Below, one piece after another: positions 12,524 through 26,113 of a DNA stretch of 64,000 nt. The stretch covers positions 96,556-160,555 of the forward strand of contig LFLA01000014.1 in NCBI GenBank assembly GCA_001542995.1, written 5' to 3'. The position numbers and the translations under genes are program-made. The notes under the pieces are model-generated. The model worked only from the letters and a program-made list of their open reading frames with translations. It was not told the origin of the DNA and did not search any database. Origin of the DNA: Nitrospina sp. LS_NOB. GTDB lineage: Bacteria > Nitrospinota > Nitrospinia > Nitrospinales > VA-1. The stretch's first letter is position 1. Every line of letters begins with the position of its first letter.

Positions 12524-14077
12524 ATGGCTGATTTCACACGCGAAGAAGTTGAAGAGAAGTTGGAAGAATACTCCGAACTGCTTGCATCCCGAGAAGAGGA
12601 AGACGAGTTCATAGATGATGAACCCGATGAAGAAAATGAAGAAGCTGTTAGTGAGGAAGAGGAAGGTTCTGACCAAGAGGAAGGTTCTGACCAAGAGGAA
12701 GGTTCTGACCAAGAGGAAGATCCCGACTCAGATGATAATCAGGAAGATGAAGTCATCAAGGAAGAAGAACCAGGTTTGGAAACTATTTTTGAGGAAAAGG
12801 ACCTGTCCGGACTGGATCTCTCGGGACTTAATTTCCTCGGCATCAGTCTGAAAAAAGCCAATTTAAAAAATACCAATTTATCCGAATGTACGCTCGCAGA
12901 ATCGAATTTGGACCAGGCTAATCTGGATCAGGCCAACCTCAGCGACGCAGATTTGGAAAATATAAGTTGCCTGGAAGGCGTGATGACCCGTGCCAATATG
13001 GAAGCTGCAAACTTTCAAGGCGCCAAACTTCTGGGAACCGATTTTACCAAATCCAATCTGGAAAGGGCAAATTTCAGAAGGTCCAAATCCATGGAAACCA
13101 AGCTGGTCCAATGCAATCTTCATGATACCGATTTCAGCAACTCTGATTTCTCGCGGGCAAACCTGAAGGAAGCTAAAATAACAGATAGCGACCTGAGCCG
13201 GGCCCGGTTCAATGGTGCTGACTTTGAGGGAACCGATTTCACCGATTCCAGGCTGAGTATGGGAGTCTTTTTTGAGGCAAACTTTAAAACCGCAAACCTC
13301 AATCGAGCCTTGATAAAAGGAGCGAAACTCGCGGGAGGAAATTTTTTCGGTGCCCAACTCACCCGCGCGGATATCACCGGAGCAGATCTCACCGGTGCCA
13401 GCTTTCACAACGCAGATTTGAGCCGCGCTAAACTAAATGGTGCCATACTAAGAAGAACGGACCTTAAAGATTCGGATTTATCCGAAGCGGATTTAAATAT
13501 CGCAGACCTGACAGGCGCTAACCTGGTTGGGACAAAATTGTCCGGTGCCAATTTAGACCGCATTAAATTGAACCAAGCCAAATTAAATGGCGCGCAATTG
13601 AGTGGAGCACGGATGACCAAGGCCAAATTAACGCAAGTTGATTTGACCGGGGCAGATTTGAGTGGGGCCAACTTGACCGGGGCAGAATTAAATGAAGGTG
13701 TTCTGGAGGGGGCTGATCTCAGCAGGGCAAACCTGACGGAAGCGATTTTGATAAATGCCAACTTGAAAAATGCTTTCCTGACCGGAGCTAATCTTCAAAA
13801 AGCAAATCTGGAAGGAGTCAATCTGGAAGGCGCAGACATGGCTGGAACTAAATTGAGAAAAGCCAATTTACAGAACGCAAACTTGAAGCAGGTAGATTTA
13901 CGGCGGGCTGATTTGGAATTCGCCGACTTCTCCAAAGCAAAGCTAAACTCGGCAAATTTTACAGGGGCTAAAATGAGCGAAGGCCTGTTCATAGGAGCCG
14001 ACCTGACAGGAACTAAAATGGACTCTGCCGATACCACGGACACCCAGTTTCAGGGAGCGATCGGATTAAAAATTTAA
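12524..14077 (+). CDS. Pentapeptide-repeat protein with highly acidic N-terminal region
   Basis: About 420 aa of A(D/N)LxxA repeats after roughly 90 aa rich in E/D. Confidence 0.9.
   Translation: MADFTREEVEEKLEEYSELLASREEEDEFIDDEPDEENEEAVSEEEEGSDQEEGSDQEEGSDQEEDPDSDDNQEDEVIKEEEPGLETIFEEKDLSGLDLSGLNFLGISLKKANLKNTNLSECTLAESNLDQANLDQANLSDADLENISCLEGVMTRANMEAANFQGAKLLGTDFTKSNLERANFRRSKSMETKLVQCNLHDTDFSNSDFSRANLKEAKITDSDLSRARFNGADFEGTDFTDSRLSMGVFFEANFKTANLNRALIKGAKLAGGNFFGAQLTRADITGADLTGASFHNADLSRAKLNGAILRRTDLKDSDLSEADLNIADLTGANLVGTKLSGANLDRIKLNQAKLNGAQLSGARMTKAKLTQVDLTGADLSGANLTGAELNEGVLEGADLSRANLTEAILINANLKNAFLTGANLQKANLEGVNLEGADMAGTKLRKANLQNANLKQVDLRRADLEFADFSKAKLNSANFTGAKMSEGLFIGADLTGTKMDSADTTDTQFQGAIGLKI
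12657..12719 (+). repeat. 18-bp in-frame tandem repeat, 3.5 copies
   Basis: aagaggaaggttctgacc repeated exactly; encodes EEGSDQ. Confidence 0.95.
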
Positions 14078-16767: not shown

Positions 16768-17826
16768 GTGAATAACCGCTCCAAAATTCTTCAAGACGTT
16801 CAAAACTATTACGGAAAAATTCTTAAAACCAAAAATGACCTTCAGACCAGCGCCTGTTGTGCGGCAGACACAATGCCTGCCTACCTGCGTCCTTACTTGA
16901 AAAATATACATGAGGAAGTGCAATCCAGATTTTATGGTTGCGCTTCCACGTTCCCTTTAAGCCTTCGTGGAAAAACCGTAGTAGATCTCGGTTGCGGTTC
17001 CGGACGCGATTGCTACCTGCTGGCTCAGTTAGTAGGCCCTGATGGCATGGTCATCGGCATCGACATGACCGATGAACAACTGGCGGTTGCAAGAAAACAT
17101 ATTGATTTTCATACGCAAAACTTTAACATGGAAAAACCTAACGTCGATTTTCGCAAAGGCTGGATTGAAGACCTCACTTCGGCAAACTTGGAGGACAATT
17201 CCGTAGATGTAATTATCTCCAACTGCGTGATCAACCTGTCTCCCGATAAGGAAAGTGTATTTCGTGAAATTTTCCGGGTTCTCAAACCCGGCGGAGAGCT
17301 GTATCTTTCAGACATTTTTTCCGGACGACGGGTGCCGGAACCCTTGACCACGGACCCGATTTTACTCGGCGAATGCCTGGGCGGTGCCCTATACATGGAA
17401 GACTTCAGGCGTATGTTGAGAAACGCAGGTTCTCTCGATTACCGGGTGGTTTCCAAAAATCCGCTCACTCTCAACAACGAGGACATCCAGCGCAAGGTCG
17501 GCATGATCGATTTTTTTTCCATGACCGTGCGTAGCTTTAAATGCGAGTTCGAAGACATTTGCGAAAACTTCGGCCATGTCGCCTACTATAAAGGCAGCAT
17601 TCCCGAATTCCCGCACGGGTTCACCCTTGATGACCATCATTATTTTCAGACCGGAATTCCCGTACCGGTTTGCGGCAATACCAGCAAGATGCTGAGTGAA
17701 ACCCGGTTCGGCGAGCATTTTAATGTCGTTGGAGATTTCTCCACCCACTACGGACCTTTTGACTGCAATACACCCCAGCCTCAAGAAGGCATCTCCTCCG
17801 CCAACGGCAACGGTGCCTGCTGCTAA
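16768..17826 (+). CDS. arsM: Arsenite S-adenosylmethionine methyltransferase
   Basis: YYG...TSACC, FYGC, VVDLGCGSGRD, ISNCVINL, GECLGGA and C-terminal CC. Confidence 0.85.
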   Translation: MNNRSKILQDVQNYYGKILKTKNDLQTSACCAADTMPAYLRPYLKNIHEEVQSRFYGCASTFPLSLRGKTVVDLGCGSGRDCYLLAQLVGPDGMVIGIDMTDEQLAVARKHIDFHTQNFNMEKPNVDFRKGWIEDLTSANLEDNSVDVIISNCVINLSPDKESVFREIFRVLKPGGELYLSDIFSGRRVPEPLTTDPILLGECLGGALYMEDFRRMLRNAGSLDYRVVSKNPLTLNNEDIQRKVGMIDFFSMTVRSFKCEFEDICENFGHVAYYKGSIPEFPHGFTLDDHHYFQTGIPVPVCGNTSKMLSETRFGEHFNVVGDFSTHYGPFDCNTPQPQEGISSANGNGACC

Positions 17827-17940
17827 CCCGGCGAGCCGCCGGTGGCTGTAATAATTCCATCATCGACTTCATGCCCCGTAGGGGTAAAATAGCAATAACT
17901 CTCTCTGGCTGATAAAAAATTTTCTCGGCTTATTAAAGAG

Positions 17941-18216
17941 TTATCGGGGTATGTCACATTCCTGCGGATTTAAGTCGTAGTTTTTATAAAGCTCACGCAA
18001 GCGCTTGCGAACCGTGATGCTGTTTTCAGAATCCTTTTTCTCCTCCCAAATCTGTTGCGCCTTGCGGGCCGCCAGAATCGCCTTGCGCCCTTCATTCAAA
18101 CCGTCAAAAGCCTTGCTCATATTGAAATAGGCGTTGGCATCCTGCGGATTTTTTTTCACCGCTTTCTTATATTCCACCAGGCCTTTCTCATAGATCGCTT
18201 TCACCACAACCCCCAA
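17941..18216 (-). pseudogene. TPR protein fragment, probably 5'-truncated
   Basis: EYKKAVKKNPQDANAYFNM TPR signature; no good start or RBS. Confidence 0.5.
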
Positions 18217-18365
18217 ACAGACGATTAATCTCCACTACAAAATAAAACTCCCCATCTTTCCTGTCAACCCCGGCAGAGAGGTGAAAATTTCATCAGGCTT
18301 TACGTCAACATATCGCGCATGTATCCTGGTTTATATTTTTCTAAGAAATTAAAGAGGATGGGGAA

Positions 18366-18632
18366 ATGGCAAGCCAGATCATCGATATTCTATGCGGTCA
18401 GTGCGGGACTTTTATGCTTCGATACCAGAAAAAAGGATCGGGACAGTTGATAAAAATTTATATCGACCGGATCGTCGAACCGGATTCTCTTGCGCGGTTA
18501 AAATCCATCACCAGCAAATCAAATCTCCCTCCATTAGCCTGCATAGAATGTGGCAACCGGATAGGACTGGCCCAGGAAGGAGGAACTTACCGAATGATAA
18601 AAGGATCGTTCAGAAGAAAAGGCGTGAAATAA
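18366..18632 (+). CDS. Small zinc-ribbon protein
   Basis: CGQC and CIEC pairs; RBS-like gaggatgggg upstream. Confidence 0.7.
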   Translation: MASQIIDILCGQCGTFMLRYQKKGSGQLIKIYIDRIVEPDSLARLKSITSKSNLPPLACIECGNRIGLAQEGGTYRMIKGSFRRKGVK

Positions 18633-18657
18633 ACGGGCAACCTGCACTTTTTAAAAT

Positions 18658-19503
18658 TCAAATTCTTCGGACAAAATAATGGTGCGCCATTAAAGTTAAA
18701 AAATATTGAACAGCCATAACCCAGGCAAAAGAGACCAAACTGGTTGAAAGGATTCCAAGAACAGCGAACAGGGCAAGCAGAAAAAGTGGGAGGTCAAGCC
18801 CATTCCAACGCCAAAGCAGCAGCAGGATTTTTATTTTCTCGTAGCAGGCTTGGCGTTGCTCAAAGGTCAAGTCCAGTTGCAGGTCTTGATCCCGAGCTTC
18901 CACAAGACGCAAAAAACTCCATTGGCCCCGAAAAAATAATTGCTGCGCCTGCATATAATAAAAATAAAGCACCAGCACCCCCGACATTTTAGTCCGAAGC
19001 TTTTGGCGGGTATTTTGAATTTCTCGTTCCATACCATCATAGCCATGTAATAGTAAAGTGACCAGACTCTGCTTGCAATAATCGTAAGAAATGGCCCGCA
19101 CAATAATCAGTCCCGCAATGATTTTCAGGACTTGTCCGTGTTCTGGAAAACCTTTGATGAGCCCAACCATCACCGCAAGGTAGGCAAAATAACCGGCGAT
19201 GCCATCAATCAACCTGCCCCATTCGCTGGCCATGCCCTTGGCCCTGGCCAACTGCCCGTCTACGCAATCCAGCACCAAAGTGACTTCCAGTAAAATTCCT
19301 CCCAGAATCATGGATGCCGGACTGGCAAAGCTGAATGCGTAACCGGAAGCAAACCCCACCAGAACAGAAAAATAAGTCACCTGATTTGGGGTCACTGGAG
19401 TGTCCTTCAAAAAAGCCACAATCTGCTTCGCAATCGGATCTTGAATATAACGATTGACCGGCTCCACCAGATCTATGGGTGCGCGGCCCGATGTATCACT
19501 CAT
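18658..19503 (-). CDS. CDP-alcohol phosphatidyltransferase family protein
   Basis: TPNQVT and LDCVDGQLAR...GRLIDG (DxxDGxxAR...GxxxD). Confidence 0.9.
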   Translation of the reverse strand: MSDTSGRAPIDLVEPVNRYIQDPIAKQIVAFLKDTPVTPNQVTYFSVLVGFASGYAFSFASPASMILGGILLEVTLVLDCVDGQLARAKGMASEWGRLIDGIAGYFAYLAVMVGLIKGFPEHGQVLKIIAGLIIVRAISYDYCKQSLVTLLLHGYDGMEREIQNTRQKLRTKMSGVLVLYFYYMQAQQLFFRGQWSFLRLVEARDQDLQLDLTFEQRQACYEKIKILLLLWRWNGLDLPLFLLALFAVLGILSTSLVSFAWVMAVQYFLTLMAHHYFVRRI

Positions 19504-19506
19504 ATC

Positions 19507-20514
19507 CTATAACCATTTTTCCTGTTGATACCAGTTGATCGTCTCGGTCAGTCCTCGGTTCAATTCATACTGAGGTTCAAAGTCAAACGCTTTAAAAAAC
19601 TTTGCCGGTGACGCAGACCATGAACTTTGCCGGATATCAATCATCCTCTGCCGATCAAACAACGCGGGCTTGGAACTGAAGCAAGCCAAAACCTCAAAGA
19701 ACAAAGCTACCGGAATCAACATCCCTTCAGGAACTTTCAGGATTTTCATCCTAACATTCATTATACGTGCACACTCTTTTGCGACCTGCTCCCAGGCGTG
19801 AACATGGCCGTCTGTAACAAAATAGCTACGGCCTTCCTGTTTGGAGGGGTGGCAAGCTTGGAGCATTGCCTGAACCAGATCGGCAACATAAATCAGAGAA
19901 AGTTCTTTGCCCGCCCGGCCAATCTGCAGCCCCCATCCTTTCTGGATCAATTTGATGAAAGTAAAAAAGTTTTCTTCCCGGGGACCATACACCACCGGAG
20001 GGCGTATAACGGTAACAGGCAGTGACCCCGAGTACTGCAAAGCAATTTCTTCCCCCGCAAGTTTTGATTGCCCGTAAAAAGTCACAGGCTTGCAAGGGGT
20101 GGTTTCATCAACGAGATTGCCCTGGGGGCTGGGGCCGGTTGCCGCCAGACTGCTAAGATGAATAATGCTTTTGATCCGGCCTCCACGCTTCTGGCATTGC
20201 TCATACAAGTTTGAGCAGGCAGTGGCATTAACTTGAAAATAGCCGGAACGGGATTTTGCCTTGGTCAGTCCTGCACAGTGGAAAATGTAGTCCAACTCCT
20301 CCAAAGGGGGGATTACAAAATCCGGTCGCGCCAGATCCACCCTGTGAAGATGAACCCTCGAAGCATCCAGCCATTTGAGGTCAGAGGATTCCCTCACCAG
20401 TCCATGAACCGTGCAACCAGAGGCCAAAAGCTGGTCTACCAGATGACTGCCGATGAAACCATTCGCGCCCGTAACCAGAGCCGTGGCCCCTTTAAGATGT
20501 GATGAGGCGTTCAT
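19507..20514 (-). CDS. NAD-dependent epimerase/dehydratase, candidate 3-keto-ceramide reductase
   Basis: TGANGFIG and YGQSK; located in the spt operon. Confidence 0.8.
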   Translation of the reverse strand: MNASSHLKGATALVTGANGFIGSHLVDQLLASGCTVHGLVRESSDLKWLDASRVHLHRVDLARPDFVIPPLEELDYIFHCAGLTKAKSRSGYFQVNATACSNLYEQCQKRGGRIKSIIHLSSLAATGPSPQGNLVDETTPCKPVTFYGQSKLAGEEIALQYSGSLPVTVIRPPVVYGPREENFFTFIKLIQKGWGLQIGRAGKELSLIYVADLVQAMLQACHPSKQEGRSYFVTDGHVHAWEQVAKECARIMNVRMKILKVPEGMLIPVALFFEVLACFSSKPALFDRQRMIDIRQSSWSASPAKFFKAFDFEPQYELNRGLTETINWYQQEKWL

Positions 20515-21613
20515 AGATGCGATGTCTTTTATAAATAGTTCCCCCTATCCGGTACATCGGTTCGAGAATGCCTTTGTTATCCTCCAGCAACCAGGATATC
20601 TCACACCATTTAATCTTTTTTTCCAGAGACAACCTGTAGATTTCGTAATAAAGCCAAGCATCAATTCCCAGCCTGCGGTATTTTTTCTTCACACCCAGCG
20701 TCAGCACCCGAAAAACATCAATTTTATTTTTCTTCCATAAGAACCAAGCCCAGCCAAAGGGAAACAGGCTTCCATCCATTCCCTTAAGCACTTGATTGAC
20801 ATCGGGAAGGGCCAGGGAAAAACCCGCCGGTTCGCCCTTTACTTCGGCAATCAAGCAAAATTCAGGATGTATGAAGGATTTCATTTCCCTTGCAGAAAAT
20901 TCAAATTCTTTTTGAGTCATAGGAACGAATCCCCAATTCAGACCCCACGCCGAGTTGTAGATATCCCAAAGAATGGAAATTTCTTTATCAAATCGGCTGA
21001 GATCCAAACATCTGACGGTGAAGCGATTCCTTTGTTTCAACTTTTTCGCGGCGCGCTCCAGATAATCCGGAACCTTAACAAAGTCCAGCCGTAACGCTAA
21101 AAGATCTTTGGCCTTTTGCAAACCCCACGCCTCAAAATGTTTCCCATAATATTCTGGGTTATAGGGGATGCCAAACATGGTGGGAGAGTCAAACCCCTCT
21201 ATCAGCAAGCCGCACTCATGGTTCGTCGACAAGTTCATCGGCCCCATAAGACGGGCATGTCCTCTTTCCTGACACCATTGATAAGCCTTGTCCAGTAAAA
21301 GCCGGGAGAGACTCGGGTCATCCCCCGACTCAAACATGCCAAACATGCCGACAGACTCTGAGTGAAGATCCTGATAGTTCCGATCATGAACCAGAGCGAT
21401 CCTCCCTACCGGTGACCGGTTGTCATCCACCGCCAGAAAAAGATCGGCTTCCGCATGTTCAAAAAACGGGTTGATGTCGGGATTCAGGAATGTTTTACGT
21501 TCCCGGATAAGAGGAGGAGTCCAGCATGGCTGGTCTTTATAAATTTTCCAGGGAAGGCGGACGAACCGATCCAAGTCCTGTCGGGTTTCAACCTTTACGA
21601 GTTTAAAACCCAT
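20492..21613 (-). CDS. GNAT-fold acyltransferase, bacterial ceramide synthase (bCerS)-like
   Basis: NPFFEHA, GRIA, FGMFE, GPMN, GLLIEGF, YNPEYY, NWGFVP, ALPDVN and SWLLEDN; adjacent to spt. Confidence 0.75.
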   Translation of the reverse strand: MGFKLVKVETRQDLDRFVRLPWKIYKDQPCWTPPLIRERKTFLNPDINPFFEHAEADLFLAVDDNRSPVGRIALVHDRNYQDLHSESVGMFGMFESGDDPSLSRLLLDKAYQWCQERGHARLMGPMNLSTNHECGLLIEGFDSPTMFGIPYNPEYYGKHFEAWGLQKAKDLLALRLDFVKVPDYLERAAKKLKQRNRFTVRCLDLSRFDKEISILWDIYNSAWGLNWGFVPMTQKEFEFSAREMKSFIHPEFCLIAEVKGEPAGFSLALPDVNQVLKGMDGSLFPFGWAWFLWKKNKIDVFRVLTLGVKKKYRRLGIDAWLYYEIYRLSLEKKIKWCEISWLLEDNKGILEPMYRIGGTIYKRHRIYERLITS

Positions 21614-21615
21614 TA

Positions 21616-22947
21616 TTACCTGGGGATGATGCCGAGCTTTGTCCCCAGTTTCCTGAATGAACCAAGGACTTTGTCAAGATCCGTTTGGTCATGGGCAGAG
21701 GTATAGCTGGTCCGGATCATGGCATTGAGGGGTGGCACGACCGGCGACACCGCGACTCCGGCAAAAACACCGTCATCAAAAAGGAGCCTGTTCAAATAAA
21801 GTGTGAGGGCCTCTTCTCCTATTTTTATGGGGACTATAGGAATAGAATTGTTATTCACCTGAAAACCCATATCAAAAAAACCTCTTTTTATATAAGCGGT
21901 ATTTTTCTGCAACTTTTCGATGCGTTCCGGCTCATTGATCATGATATCCAGACCCACAATGACCCCAGCAACCGATGCAGGCGGCAGGGCCGCAGTAAAA
22001 ATAAACGCCGAGGCTTTATGGCGAATGAACTCGGTGATCTTGGACTTTGCGGAAATAAATCCACCGATGGACCCCAGGCTTTTGGAAAACGTTCCCATAT
22101 AAATATCTATTTCGTCTTCCAGATTGTAGTAGTTGGCGACACCCCTGCCACTTTCACCCATGACACCCAGGCCGTGAGCTTCATCAACCATGACGTTGGC
22201 CCCGTAGTCTTTTGCGAGTTTCACAATAGCTGGAAGGTTGGCAATATCACCGCTCATACTGAATATACTGTCGGTAATAATTATCTTGCCTTCAACATCC
22301 GAATATTTTTTTAAATAATATTCCAGATGATCCATATCATTATGCTGATAGCGGACTGTCTTTCCCGGTGCCACCCCACACCCTTCATAGATACTGGCAT
22401 GGTTTTCCCGATCCGAAAAAGCTACATCCTTTCTCCCCAGGAGACAAGCAATAGTTCCCTGATTTGCCTGGAATCCCGTGGACATGACAATGGTATCTTC
22501 TCGGCTCAAGAAAGAGGAAAGCTTCTTTTCCAGGGTCTTATGCAGATTGAAAGTACCATTGAGAAAACGGCTACCAGTACAACCGATGCCAAATTTTTCC
22601 AATGCCTCCCGAGCCGCTGAAATCACGCGAGGTTCCTGGGCCAGCCCGAGATAATTATTGGTAGAAACGGAAATGACTTGCTTCCCGTCAATGACAACAT
22701 GGCATCCATCAATTTCCTGGATTTCCCTGAAATACGGATAAATCCCCAGCTCCTTGGCCTGCTCCGGGGCAAAGTAGCCAAAGCATTTTGCCAGAATCCC
22801 TTTTTCTTTACTGTTGGGAGGGCGCAGGTGGGAATTTTTAAAATCAAACTTCTTTTTCAATAAAGAGGTGATTTTACTCTTCTTTAAATGAGCAGGTTCT
22901 TCGTCGTCACTTTCAAGTTCATTGAGCAGGGTAAAAGGTTTTGTCAT
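21616..22947 (-). CDS. spt: Serine palmitoyltransferase (PLP-dependent alpha-oxoamine synthase)
   Basis: GIYPYFREI, NNYLGL, GCTGSRFLNGT, NHAS, DEAH and GTFSKS. Confidence 0.8.
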   Translation of the reverse strand: MTKPFTLLNELESDDEEPAHLKKSKITSLLKKKFDFKNSHLRPPNSKEKGILAKCFGYFAPEQAKELGIYPYFREIQEIDGCHVVIDGKQVISVSTNNYLGLAQEPRVISAAREALEKFGIGCTGSRFLNGTFNLHKTLEKKLSSFLSREDTIVMSTGFQANQGTIACLLGRKDVAFSDRENHASIYEGCGVAPGKTVRYQHNDMDHLEYYLKKYSDVEGKIIITDSIFSMSGDIANLPAIVKLAKDYGANVMVDEAHGLGVMGESGRGVANYYNLEDEIDIYMGTFSKSLGSIGGFISAKSKITEFIRHKASAFIFTAALPPASVAGVIVGLDIMINEPERIEKLQKNTAYIKRGFFDMGFQVNNNSIPIVPIKIGEEALTLYLNRLLFDDGVFAGVAVSPVVPPLNAMIRTSYTSAHDQTDLDKVLGSFRKLGTKLGIIPR

Positions 22948-22997
22948 AAGTTTCTCACCCGAAATTTATAAAAAAATTCAAACCATGATCTATAGTT

Positions 22998-24053
22998 TCA
23001 GCAGGCGGCATGCTTCCACAACTGATTCAGTGCAGGAAGTAATCCCGAGCAAACGGTTTGACCATATAAGGAGTTCTCTCCCTGATCCCGAATCAGTCGG
23101 CGATGCGCCTCTCCTAATGCGTGATAAGGCAGGTCGGGAAACAGGTGATGCGTCGCATGAAAGCGAAGACCCACCGGCGCCCATAAAGGAGTCATCCATC
23201 TATTCCCGGGGATATTGACCGAGTCCAGCATTTGGCTTGGGTAGCTCATCGCATTTTCCTTGGGGTTTTGATAGCGGTGAGCCCCCAGGGTTCTAATGGA
23301 ATTAACCATAAAAATCAATGCTCCAACACAGTACCACAGGAACAGGGATATCGCGGGAATAATTTTCAGGAGGACGGCCCCCAGAAATGCCCAGGCAAAA
23401 AGGCATGCCAAAAACTCCTGAATTTTCCAATCTTCAATATTCTTCCAGGAAGACTCCGGTCTTTGATAATCTAGATCAATGATCAGCGCCGACATCCTGG
23501 CCATCATGAATGATCTCAACTTTTTATTGACCAGAGATAATGGAGTTAATACTGAAAAGCGCGCTAAAAATATAATCGGAACCAGAAAAGAAAAAAGAAC
23601 ATGAATGACAATCCACTTCCTCCCCTTTAAAGCGAAGGGGAAATATTCCCCATCTTTTTCGGTTCCATAAAAATTCTGTTTATGGTGATCTAGATGAACG
23701 AACTGATAAAGAAAAACGGGAACCATAAGAGGGAAACCACAAAGTATATTCCAGACCCAACGGAACACCTTGAAGGCGCCCTTTTTGAAATGGACAATTT
23801 CATGGATGAATAAAACTGCCCGATACAAAGCCATGCAGGAGAGAGTCACAAAAAGGATTTGCCGGGAAGAAAGAACCGGAGACATGAGGGCAAGAACAAA
23901 AGCACCCCACCCGAGAATGGCGCTAAATAAAAAATCCAACCAGTAAATAATGGGATTAGGCCGAAAGAGATCTTTCACCAGTTCTCTTGCCCTGCCCATC
24001 GGAAAACTTTCTCGCTCCTTCTGTAAATTTTCATGGGCCTGTTGAGTCAACAC
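22998..24053 (-). CDS. Membrane-bound fatty acid/sphingolipid desaturase
   Basis: His boxes HEIVH, HLDHH and FHATHH with TM segments. Confidence 0.88.
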   Translation of the reverse strand: MLTQQAHENLQKERESFPMGRARELVKDLFRPNPIIYWLDFLFSAILGWGAFVLALMSPVLSSRQILFVTLSCMALYRAVLFIHEIVHFKKGAFKVFRWVWNILCGFPLMVPVFLYQFVHLDHHKQNFYGTEKDGEYFPFALKGRKWIVIHVLFSFLVPIIFLARFSVLTPLSLVNKKLRSFMMARMSALIIDLDYQRPESSWKNIEDWKIQEFLACLFAWAFLGAVLLKIIPAISLFLWYCVGALIFMVNSIRTLGAHRYQNPKENAMSYPSQMLDSVNIPGNRWMTPLWAPVGLRFHATHHLFPDLPYHALGEAHRRLIRDQGENSLYGQTVCSGLLPALNQLWKHAAC

Positions 24054-24080
24054 AGTGATCCTGTTCGTAATGACGGGTTG

Positions 24081-24419
24081 CTAATTTTTTTCCGCGCAGG
24101 ATACGCACAGAACATTTTCCGGCATGAGCATAATGCGGCCTTCTGGAATCGGGTTGGCGCAACGGGCGCAGATTCCAAAATCCGGCAAGTCCACCTTGCT
24201 CAAGGCTTTTTCAAGCTTAAGCAGTTTAGCCTTTGACGAGTTCAACGAAGCCTCGCTTATACCCTGACTGCCGAGCGCCTCCATTCGAGTGAGACGGCCT
24301 ATAGCGTTGTCCGGAGCAACTGGCTTGGAGGTTATGGTGAAAGTTTCTATCAGGTGCTTTTGCACCTCGATCTCTTCAACGATTTTCTTTTTAAGTTCCG
24401 CTCTACCTTCATCATCCAT
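24081..24419 (-). CDS. TraR/DksA C4-type zinc finger protein
   Basis: FGICARC...IPEGR...LCVSC and DNAIGRLTRM. Confidence 0.85.
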   Translation of the reverse strand: MDDEGRAELKKKIVEEIEVQKHLIETFTITSKPVAPDNAIGRLTRMEALGSQGISEASLNSSKAKLLKLEKALSKVDLPDFGICARCANPIPEGRIMLMPENVLCVSCAEKN

Positions 24420-24452
24420 ACACGATCCTACCATTAATGCGTAAAATTCGGG

Positions 24453-25241
24453 CTATTTTGAGGCAGGAACAAATCCGGACATCGCGCATCTCTGAGCCAA
24501 CAGTGGAGTGAAACGGTCAGTATCCTGGGAGAGTTCTTCCATAAACTCATTGGCCAGATTCTGGTCTTCAAAGCATTCGTAAATATCATCCAGAAATCCG
24601 CCGCGCAAAAGCGGATGCTCAAGGAAATCACGCCCCGAGCGGGTAAAAATTTCCAGCGGCCATTCGGTCACCTCGACCTGCTCCAGACCCAGTTCCTCCA
24701 GCCATTGTTTTGCCTGGTTGGCGGAAGGACGTTCCTCTATATACTCGGCCAAGGCCTTTCGTTCCTTGACCAGGTTTCTCTGTTTCATCTCCTCGTCCAC
24801 GAGGTTCCATAAAGAGTCAAACGTTCCCAGCGAGGGAAACGTCAGCACAATTTGCCCACCCGGTTTTAAGAATCGGACCAGATTGCTGAGCGCCTCAAAA
24901 CGATTCGGGCGAAAAAACATGAAAGAGAGGTTGCCGGTGATGCGGTTAAAACTGGGAAGTGTCGGGGGCAAAAAACGCATGTCCCCCACCTCAAACTGCA
25001 ACCAAGGCAAATGCTGGCCCTGAATTGACCGGGAACGAAGCACCTGAGACTGGTGGATGTCAATAGCCAGAACGCTTCCTTGAGGTCCTACCTGTTCCGC
25101 CAAATGAAACGCCGGGATCCCTCCCCCGGCGGCGATGTCCAGCACCGAGTCGCCCGGTTGCAGCTGTAGTTTATGCATCAACAGTTTTGCAAAAGGGGTG
25201 GACCAAGGGTCGTTTTCAGGCAAAGGCCAGGATGGGGTCAT
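24453..25241 (-). CDS. Class I SAM-dependent methyltransferase
   Basis: VLDIAAGGG, GDM and LKPGG. Confidence 0.85.
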   Translation of the reverse strand: MTPSWPLPENDPWSTPFAKLLMHKLQLQPGDSVLDIAAGGGIPAFHLAEQVGPQGSVLAIDIHQSQVLRSRSIQGQHLPWLQFEVGDMRFLPPTLPSFNRITGNLSFMFFRPNRFEALSNLVRFLKPGGQIVLTFPSLGTFDSLWNLVDEEMKQRNLVKERKALAEYIEERPSANQAKQWLEELGLEQVEVTEWPLEIFTRSGRDFLEHPLLRGGFLDDIYECFEDQNLANEFMEELSQDTDRFTPLLAQRCAMSGFVPASK

Positions 25242-25321
25242 AACTTTCCTTTAACTTTTTATTAATTGACCAATACGGTTATTATAAAGAGACCATCATT
25301 CTACCGGATATTAAATCTAAC

Positions 25322-26113
25322 ATGGATATTTTCACGGATGACAGACTCCCCGACTCATACGCCCTCTGCCTTCTTGGCCACGGGAGTCGGGATCCCGAAG
25401 GCAATGAGGAATTCATGGTCCTGTGGCAAAAATTACGCGAAAGAAACTTTTGTCAGATCACCGAAGCCGGATTTCTGGAGTTTGCCAAGCCTACTGTCGC
25501 CGAAGCTTTATCCACATGCCAGAGTAACGGCATTAAAAATATTATTATATTGCCGAGTATTTTATTCTCCGGCGAACACACGCAAAGGGATATCCCGGAT
25601 ACAATCCGCGAAGTATTCCGAGACCACCCTGAAATCAATCTAATTTTTTCAGAGCCACTGGGCACACAACCTGAGATTATGGAAGTCTGCCAGGCACGCA
25701 TCAAGGAAGGCGAAAAACTTTCCCAAAAATCCATTCTCCGGTCAGAAACATTGCTCATGATCGTGGGCCATGGAAGCCGCGACACAGATTTTAACTCTCA
25801 AGTCGACAAAAACCTGTTCCAGTTGGGGAAAAAACTGGGCTTCGGCAAAACCATTATCTGCTTTGCAGGAACCTCTCAACATTCTCTGGAAGACATGCAA
25901 GAAAAATTTGACCCGCAAGGATTTCACCGTGTCATTCTATTGCCCTTTTTTTTGTTCACTGGCGTCTGGGTCAAACGCGTACATGGCCTTGCCGACACTT
26001 TTCAGAAAAAATACCCGGATATCGAATTTCTCAAAGCCCCCTGCCTCAAGCATCATGATATAATTGTAAATACATTGATTCAACGTGCAAGGAAAAGTGT
26101 TTTTAACAAGTAA
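25322..26113 (+). CDS. cbiX: Sirohydrochlorin chelatase (CbiX/SirB family)
   Basis: Two GHGSRD repeats, GFLEFAKP and GEHTQRDIP. Confidence 0.82.
   Translation: MDIFTDDRLPDSYALCLLGHGSRDPEGNEEFMVLWQKLRERNFCQITEAGFLEFAKPTVAEALSTCQSNGIKNIIILPSILFSGEHTQRDIPDTIREVFRDHPEINLIFSEPLGTQPEIMEVCQARIKEGEKLSQKSILRSETLLMIVGHGSRDTDFNSQVDKNLFQLGKKLGFGKTIICFAGTSQHSLEDMQEKFDPQGFHRVILLPFFLFTGVWVKRVHGLADTFQKKYPDIEFLKAPCLKHHDIIVNTLIQRARKSVFNK

Follow-up and report, generated by a model that had tools for sequence, protein, structure and literature searches.

Does a marine nitrite oxidizer encode the means to make ceramides, and with what would it decorate them? Much nitrite oxidation in the ocean is the work of Nitrospinota, a phylum whose membrane lipids are little studied. 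The question is raised by five minus-strand genes in the DNA analysed here, a window of 64,000 nucleotides from Nitrospina sp. LS_NOB (contig LFLA01000014.1, C3:96556-160555 in our numbering) that belongs to a 2.65-Mb genome estimated to be 98.8% complete. In their reading direction the genes encode a desaturase-like membrane enzyme, an alpha-oxoamine synthase (AOS) resembling serine palmitoyltransferase (Spt), a GNAT-type N-acyltransferase resembling bCerS, a short-chain dehydrogenase/reductase (SDR) resembling CerR and a CDP-alcohol phosphotransferase (CDP-OH) homologue. We consider it likely that this cluster represents the bacterial ceramide pathway in its Nitrospinales form, to which tailoring genes particular to the lineage have been added. 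Its Spt/bCerS/CerR core is a well-supported new member of that known pathway, since homology, phylogeny and gene linkage agree on the ceramide operon that a first-pass annotation of the sequence had proposed. The CDP-OH gene, the fourth when counted from the Spt gene, is a new, Nitrospinales-specific head-group variant on the pathway.

The five genes are tightly packed, with spacings of 50 bp, 2 bp, a 23-bp overlap and 3 bp from the desaturase gene to the CDP-OH gene (Table 1). The first-pass annotation had drawn the same compact arrangement, for which the list of open reading frames (ORFs) gives exactly the same boundaries and Pfam agrees on the families. Measured against three Nitrospinaceae orthologue sets, the ratio of nonsynonymous to synonymous substitution rates (dN/dS) lies between 0.04 and 0.19 for all five, so that these are not chance ORFs; all five genes are real and under purifying selection.

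Comparison of the AOS enzyme with curated families gives good support for an Spt-like identity over BioF, Kbl or HemA. Of the NCBIfam models, the serine palmitoyltransferase family NF047600 (SerpalmtaseCFB) fits best at 457 bits, against 386 for a BioF/Kbl-related model, 378 for Kbl, 364 for BioF and 247 for HemA. A search of PDB sequences likewise places the Sphingobacterium serine palmitoyltransferases 8guh/3a2b at the top with 371 bits, followed by the BioF/Kbl entry 7poa with 288. Both rankings uphold the Spt-type assignment made at first pass, and the motifs cited then (YPYFREI, GSRFLNGT and GTFSKS) are all found in the translation. The last of these, the motif of the pyridoxal phosphate-binding lysine, aligns with the same motif in the assayed Spt of Escherichia coli BL21, to which the window enzyme is 36% identical (E = 5e-82).

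Besides the window AOS the genome has just one other, on contig C26, which reaches 233 bits with the Spt model. Both were entered into a quick maximum-likelihood tree of 73 rows (LG+G4, SH-aLRT support only), together with BioF, Kbl and Spt of E. coli, paralogues of four other genomes and AOS genes of bCerS-like loci. As the first-pass annotation had anticipated for such a phylogeny, the window AOS groups with the assayed E. coli Spt; both lie inside a clade of 66 rows with 99% SH-aLRT support, which consists of 62 AOS genes adjacent to bCerS-like genes, the E. coli Spt and three further sequences. Kbl and BioF of E. coli and the second AOS of the genome all fall outside it. That second enzyme belongs to neither the Spt-like nor the Kbl clade and branches off next after the BioF-type rows, which are BioF of E. 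coli and L098. The E. coli Spt is itself a long branch in this tree, and several long-branch joins were flagged.

The GNAT protein is, with similarly good support from its sequence, a full-length member of the YghO/CC_1154 (bCerS) family. It aligns with YghO of E. coli BL21 over its full length (380 columns) at 37% identity with an E value of 9e-81, and in the reverse search it is the sole match of YghO in the genome; as YghO is the homologue of CC_1154 (PMC9386255), this supports the earlier equation of the GNAT protein with bCerS. The family is large, with 5038 homologues at E ≤ 1e-5 among 7035 candidates in a word-indexed search and 8227 cluster representatives at E ≤ 1e-3 in an exhaustive one. 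Three unusual members were examined (P0121, P0147 and P0167), among which are natural AOS-GNAT fusions, P0147 (780 aa) and P0167 (648 aa), that join an aminotransferase class I/II domain to a bCerS-like GNAT, the Aminotran_1_2 match of P0167 spanning profile positions 130-361 only. A tandem double-GNAT form of 784 aa is also present in the family.

The SDR is assigned to CerR by reciprocal best match, as the first pass had it, and is the weakest of the three core assignments because its identity to the E. coli BL21 CerR homologue, 'epi' (ECD_02852), is low (24%, E = 7e-28). In the reverse search it is the best match of epi in the genome, at 97 bits against 62 for the next. The translation contains GANGFIG (GxxGxxG) and YGQSK (YxxxK). 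Its N-terminus, MNASSHLKGATALVTGANG, enters the Rossmann motif from about residue 15 with no hydrophobic leader visible by eye; in this direct start, with no evident signal peptide, it may differ from the CerR of Caulobacter, which is reported to be periplasmic (PMC11087976).

Each core protein is thus the reciprocal best match of its E. coli BL21 counterpart, and the three enzyme families of the Caulobacter and E. coli BL21 pathway are clustered here as well. In E. coli BL21(DE3) the corresponding cluster comprises yghO/ECD_02850 (the CC_1154 homologue), aasR, epi/ECD_02852 (the CC_1164 homologue), acpR and spt/ECD_02854, which encodes the assayed Spt (PMC9386255). Unlike that pathway, the window cluster contains neither AcpR nor AasR. 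No acyl carrier protein (ACP) gene is found among the cluster genes, in accordance with the first-pass description, and AcpR and AasR of E. coli retrieve weak, generic matches elsewhere in the genome. With AcpR and AasR missing, the Spt is probably of the acyl-CoA type; the lack of an ACP fits such a non-Rhodobacteria enzyme because the best model is of the CFB type and AcpR/AasR are tied to the Rhodobacteria group (PMC9386255). The Spt is nearest the CFB/Sphingobacterium type, unlike that of the Caulobacter/E. coli system, from which the window also differs in its head-group genes and in having no LptF2/G2 genes linked to the cluster.

The first-pass annotation had thought a sphingolipid cluster unexpected in a Nitrospina-like nitrifier, an expectation that a survey of the phylum weakens. 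Among 120 Nitrospinota genomes, 57 of them high-quality, a bCerS-like gene occurs in 74 (39 of the high-quality set) and an orthologue of the CDP-OH gene in 63 (34 of the high-quality set); these genomes are related and not independent, and the figures are to be read as a description of conservation, not as a statistical test. Every one of the 63 CDP-OH-bearing genomes has the bCerS-like gene as well. In 62 of them the CDP-OH gene lies on the same contig and strand, 984-1134 bp downstream of the bCerS-like gene with the SDR gene filling the gap; in the one exception the two are found on separate contigs. Eleven genomes have a bCerS-like gene and no CDP-OH orthologue: in seven of them the only bCerS-like copy is a divergent one (35-39% identity), and the other four are 61-71% complete. 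We found no description of a ceramide or sphingolipid cluster for Nitrospinota in the literature searched. Spt-like genes have been inferred in 38 phyla of the Black Sea (Ding et al., PMC11334938), in a paper whose main text does not name Nitrospina or Nitrospinota and whose supplements may list the phylum.

Gene order is equally well kept. Ten regions from other Nitrospinales genera were compared, and the nine that hold the cluster all have the order Spt-GNAT-SDR-CDP-OH, down to 41% identity and across four families; Spt-GNAT-SDR is kept in 13 of the 13 Nitrospinales loci examined. A wider search based on a 10-sequence alignment gave 600 pattern matches, of which 596 were confirmed, and the best 80 loci comprise four from Nitrospinales and 76 from other phyla. 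The four Nitrospinales loci (L013-L016) keep all seven genes of Table 1 in order. Among the 76, an Spt-like gene lies within 3 kb in 55, a homologous SDR gene in 39 and both in 38, which is the same compact core; neither the CDP-OH gene nor the desaturase gene has an orthologue in any of them, and a CDP-OH family gene of whatever kind occurs in two, both PIP-synthase-like. Within this comparison, CDP-OH as the fourth gene is seen in Nitrospinales alone. As a separate observation, two genera (G048-G054) carry only the divergent bCerS-like gene, without a CDP-OH orthologue, and G011, G046, G047 and G056 carry both the divergent and the cluster-type gene; a second, differently decorated sphingolipid system may exist in Nitrospinota.

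What, then, does the fourth gene encode? Its product matches PF01066 at 46.9 bits against a cut-off of 22 and falls far below every NCBIfam subfamily cut-off, the best curated model being archaetidylinositol phosphate synthase at 60 bits against 180. The best PDB sequence match is AF2299 (4o6m) at 48.7 bits, and the Atlas clusters retrieved for the protein are generic ones only. The CDP-OH family signature, D1xxD2GxxAR...GxxxD3xxxD4, is described as consisting of eight absolutely conserved residues, of which D4 is the presumed catalytic base (PMC4634129, PMC6506517). In the window it reads DCVDGQLARAKGMASEWGRLIDGIAG, following the pattern D..DG..AR...G...D...G: seven of the eight residues are retained and D4, the column of which was fixed by a HMMER alignment to AF2299, is Gly. 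The nucleotide motif P(D/N)xx(T/S) is present as TPNQVT, and in a 10-row alignment of the window protein with nine orthologues its P, Q and last T/S are invariant, while N occurs in nine rows and D in one (L120). The same alignment reveals a C-terminal extension of about 130 residues with a conserved YDYCK, a conserved WNG and a late His. The domain, the P-N-x-x-T motif and the seven signature residues are common to this protein and to AF2299/IPCT-DIPPS, PIP synthase and the insect ceramide phosphoethanolamine (CPE) synthase; the Gly at D4 and the extension set it apart from all three. The insect enzyme has the same CDP-OH motif, with essential final aspartates, and it demonstrates that ceramide is a possible acceptor for the family (PMC9550178).

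With a dN/dS of 0.12-0.19 against the three orthologue sets, we read the CDP-OH gene as encoding a functional protein whose chemistry is probably altered. The word-indexed search returned 442 homologues; the 120 listed are all at least 77% identical to it, and every taxon-named one among them is from Nitrospina or Nitrospinota. The genome has eight CDP-OH_P_transf genes, that is, seven paralogues of the cluster's own. Those on C14 and C13 lie in unrelated lipid or carotenoid contexts, the C14 paralogue adjoining a CrtC-like lipocalin gene and the C13 one an LPG_synthase_TM gene. In two short paralogues (C24:207469-208176 and C24:64637-65302) the signature Arg is replaced, AK and AI standing for AR.

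The gene at the other end of the cluster is more restricted in its occurrence. PF00487 is the only Pfam family matched by the desaturase, even at E 10; in particular no Lipid_DES domain (PF08557) appears at that threshold, and no PDB relative at E 1. The histidine boxes HEIVH, HLDHH and HATHH are present in the translation. Its Atlas clusters are generic only, and one in which 13% of members carry PF08557 serves as a lead only. Homologues at 50-54% identity occur in records of Methylomirabilales, Nitrosomonas, Rhodothermales and Alphaproteobacteria. Within the phylum, orthologues are found in 41 of the 120 genomes (17 of the 57 high-quality ones), which belong to three of 30 genera and a single family, and 40 of these 41 genomes also have the bCerS-like gene. 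Gene position is what points to a lipid of this pathway as the substrate. As a DesA-family enzyme is thought to hydroxylate the ceramide acyl chain of Caulobacter (PMC11324152), hydroxylation is as likely as desaturation for this di-iron enzyme. The unsaturated lipids foreseen at first pass thereby find no firm support: the orthologue is narrowly distributed, lacks Lipid_DES and may equally be a hydroxylase. In other families of the order, different genes flank the cluster in place of the desaturase, namely an FA_hydroxylase (PF04116) gene at L119:3035-3883 and one or two Lipoprotein_16 (PF03923) genes upstream of the cluster at L116:11004-11702 and L117:3870-5485.

A gene of the MMPL family, about 800 aa long, is found directly downstream of the cluster in all seven annotated loci from other genera. 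In the window's genus the MMPL orthologue lies elsewhere in the genome, not beside the cluster. At that place in the window's genome (G000:C17:43869-46270; L126, 5867-8262) it is split by a frameshift into ORFs of 221 aa and 567 aa, and it is intact at 816-838 aa in four close genomes; the split is either an assembly error or a real frameshift.

Taken together, the families and their order suggest the following route. The Spt-like enzyme would condense serine with acyl-CoA to 3-ketosphinganine, without a dedicated ACP or acyl-ACP synthetase, and the YghO/bCerS-family acyltransferase would add the amide-linked acyl chain, two steps for which homology, phylogeny and linkage all argue. The CerR-like SDR would reduce the 3-keto group, giving dihydroceramide. 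The order of N-acylation and keto-reduction in bacterial ceramide synthesis is disputed in the literature. Family membership and a near-invariant gene order suggest that the CDP-OH protein might then transfer a polar head group to the 1-hydroxyl of the ceramide, with a CMP-activated compound as donor. In three genera, the window's included, the upstream di-iron enzyme may desaturate or hydroxylate the lipid, judging by its position, and in other families of the order the probable exporter of the product is the MMPL-type transporter whose gene follows directly.

Several findings weigh against this route or against parts of it. The AOS remains under the equivalog cut-off of its best model (640 bits for NF047600) and of the other two Spt models (363 bits against 500 and 300 against 670). 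The Nitrospinota Spt clade sits on a long stem (1.19) in a tree that holds one assayed Spt and neither a HemA nor a cysteate acyltransferase row. Twenty of the 76 loci from other phyla have neither an Spt nor an SDR gene within 3 kb of the bCerS-like gene, some of them lying on short contigs. A homologue of the desaturase is found in two of 50 bCerS-bearing genomes of other phyla, which cover 50 of the 76 loci, at 34-36% identity and not beside the cluster. The Caulobacter proteins CCNA_01212, CerR, CC_1159 and CpgB entered the comparison by description only, the sequence references being those of E. coli BL21. The missed cut-offs, together with the 364-386 bits still reached by BioF, Kbl and related models, would suit an AOS that is a BioF or Kbl paralogue in a cluster unrelated to sphingolipids. 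We regard this explanation as largely refuted and give it hardly any credence, as the enzyme falls inside the Spt-like clade, a separate second AOS takes the place nearest the BioF-type rows, and the window AOS and its orthologues have bCerS-like and CerR-like genes as neighbours in each of the 13 Nitrospinales loci examined. We also think it very unlikely that the cluster uses another amino acid in place of serine and yields a sphingolipid-like lipid, for example one with a 1-deoxy base from alanine or a sulfonolipid-type base from cysteate, which the downstream genes would then tailor. The substrate choice of an AOS cannot be read from sequence here, cysteate-C-fatty acyltransferase structures are detectable homologues in the PDB sequence search (28eh at 217 and 7u7h at 233 bits), and abundant 1-deoxysphingolipids from marine bacteria have been reported (Ding et al., PMC11334938); the Spt structures nevertheless score far higher, and the AOS trees with bCerS-linked AOS genes and the assayed Spt.

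The remaining contrary evidence concerns the head-group step. Gly occupies D4 in 119 of 120 close homologues (one falling outside the search pattern) and in eight of nine orthologues from other Nitrospinales genera, L117 keeping Asp, so that the position is variable. In the PIP synthase of Mycobacterium tuberculosis the D93N exchange, which affects D4, nearly abolishes activity (PMC4634129, PMC6506517) while substrate binding is unharmed (PMC4634129). Because Gly replaces D4 in most orthologues, canonical transferase activity and the head group of the CDP-OH protein are unproven; of the head-group transferase named at first pass, the family stands, and the catalytic assignment is weakened by the replaced fourth Asp. 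These observations, and the presence of seven paralogues in the genome, would be accommodated if the core made ceramide and the CDP-OH homologue were its non-catalytic partner, such as a lipid/CDP-binding scaffold or a flippase-like helper, the product being free ceramide or a ceramide decorated by enzymes encoded elsewhere. We think this unlikely: the gene is under purifying selection, its product keeps the P-N-x-x-T motif along with the rest of the signature, a residue of the conserved YDYCK, WNG or C-terminal His could supply a substitute base, and one lineage (L117) still has the Asp.

If the CDP-OH protein is indeed the transferase proposed above, candidate donors can be weighed against the gene content of the genome. 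One tentative answer, which we hold to be rather improbable as a whole, is that Nitrospinales make sphingophosphonolipids, the CDP-OH protein acting as a CMP-aminoethylphosphonate:ceramide phosphonotransferase and the donor being supplied by a phosphoenolpyruvate (PEP) mutase-cytidylyltransferase fusion and by scattered decarboxylase-like and aminotransferase-like genes. The genome contains a PEP mutase-nucleotidyltransferase fusion (TIGR02320, 357 bits; cut-off 319.55), a two-subunit decarboxylase matched about as well by the phosphonopyruvate as by the sulfopyruvate decarboxylase model, neither cut-off being reached by either subunit, and a borderline aminoethylphosphonate (AEP) aminotransferase (356.5 bits against 360.8). 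From these the aminoethylphosphonate pathway may be complete, if dispersed. The phosphonate-type genes lie on three contigs (G000:C5:100584-102314, C23:40823-41813 and C21:5014-6066). Nucleotidyltransferases of the kind fused to PEP mutase make CMP-aminoethylphosphonate (PMC6697681). Predicted phosphonolipid clusters of the 'Burkholderiales_CDP-OH' type contain a CDP-OH enzyme presumed to transfer the phosphonate to the lipid, and a sphingophosphonolipid has been described in Bacteriovorax stolpii (PMC8942020); the window's genome shares the phosphonate genes with these systems, and unlike the 'Burkholderiales_CDP-OH' clusters it has them scattered, none beside the ceramide cluster, which weighs against the proposal. 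The PEP mutase fusion was found in 90 of the 120 genomes, among them 60 of the 63 that have the CDP-OH gene and 29 of the 39 in the order that do not. It is nearly order-wide, and the genomes are again not independent observations; both points reduce what the co-occurrence can say.

Other donors appear less promising. CDP-inositol is ranked below the phosphonate donor because any IPCT-like CDP-inositol enzyme is matched in only 31 of the 63 CDP-OH-bearing genomes and a full-length IPCT/DIPPS-like fusion, by our reading, in 13 of 120. The genome does have two inositol-phosphate synthase genes, and next to each lies an IPCT/DIPPS-like fusion of nucleotidyltransferase and CDP-OH; these loci suggest CDP-inositol chemistry in a nitrite oxidizer, the fusion being patchy in the phylum. 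The C24 copy (L114, G000:C24:64637-70581) scores 452.6 bits to TIGR03450, and its locus also has a second nucleotidyltransferase, a methyltransferase and a short CDP-OH paralogue; the C16 copy (L115, G000:C16:118-2945) matches PF01658 at 112.6 bits only and no NCBIfam family. For CDP-ethanolamine, CDP-choline or CDP-glycerol as donor, the genome search recognised no ECT-, CCT- or TagD-type candidate, three CTP_transf_like matches being left unannotated. The ceramide phosphoglycerate system of Caulobacter, CpgABC/CpgD, resembles the window in having a CDP-OH-domain protein, CC_1159, among its sphingolipid genes (PMC11324152). A CDP-ceramide route in the Caulobacter style was considered and rejected: unlike CpgABC, the genome offers no ceramide-kinase-type DAGK_cat or other lipid-kinase domain above cut-off, the best PF00781 match reaching 22 bits against 23.6, which leaves room for a divergent kinase.

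The conserved cluster predicts base-stable sphingolipids in Nitrospinota, which could serve as biomarkers of the phylum and be part of its outer-membrane biology. The CDP-OH protein, which is kept by selection and tied to the ceramide genes, lets one ask in a natural setting whether the D4 aspartate is indispensable, and it may prove to be the transferase so far missing for a ceramide head group of bacteria, perhaps a phosphonate. If true, a phosphonate head group would tie nitrifiers to marine carbon-phosphorus cycling.

Table 1. Positions in the window of the proposed ceramide cluster and of the two genes immediately upstream of it.
Feature	Positions	Strand	Length and best domain match
FA_desaturase-family di-iron membrane enzyme (desaturase or hydroxylase)	22998-24053	-	351 aa; PF00487 1e-28
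Spt-like alpha-oxoamine synthase (AOS), serine palmitoyltransferase candidate	21616-22947	-	443 aa; Aminotran_1_2 PF00155 4e-52
bCerS-like N-acyltransferase (GNAT), YghO/CC_1154 family	20492-21613	-	373 aa; Acetyltransf_1 weak, 3.5e-4
CerR-like extended SDR, keto-reductase candidate	19507-20514	-	335 aa; Epimerase PF01370 8e-35
Divergent CDP-alcohol phosphotransferase (CDP-OH), candidate ceramide head-group transferase	18658-19503	-	281 aa; CDP-OH_P_transf PF01066 5e-12
DksA/TraR-type C4 zinc-finger protein, possibly co-transcribed	24081-24434	-	117 aa; PF01258 2.7e-9
Class I S-adenosylmethionine (SAM)-dependent methyltransferase, possibly co-transcribed	24453-25241	-	262 aa; Methyltransf_25 5.6e-13

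The transcription unit may comprise seven genes (18658-25241), because two further genes on the same strand precede the desaturase with gaps of only 27 bp (the DksA/TraR gene) and a further 18 bp (the methyltransferase gene, for which no specific NCBIfam family was matched). Promoter and terminator scans of 17500-25800 gave no excess over shuffled sequence (12 against 10.1 and 9 against 11.2, respectively) and are silent on the limits of the operon. Both upstream genes are syntenic in L013-L016 and in L123; L124 lacks them, as do the loci of other families. Elsewhere in the window, the plus-strand gene at 16768-17826 encodes an arsenite-methyltransferase-like protein (192.6 bits to NF008823, under the cut-off of 263), and the one at 12524-14077, also on the plus strand, encodes a 517-aa protein in which an acidic N-terminus is followed by apparent pentapeptide repeats, as seen by eye in the translation.

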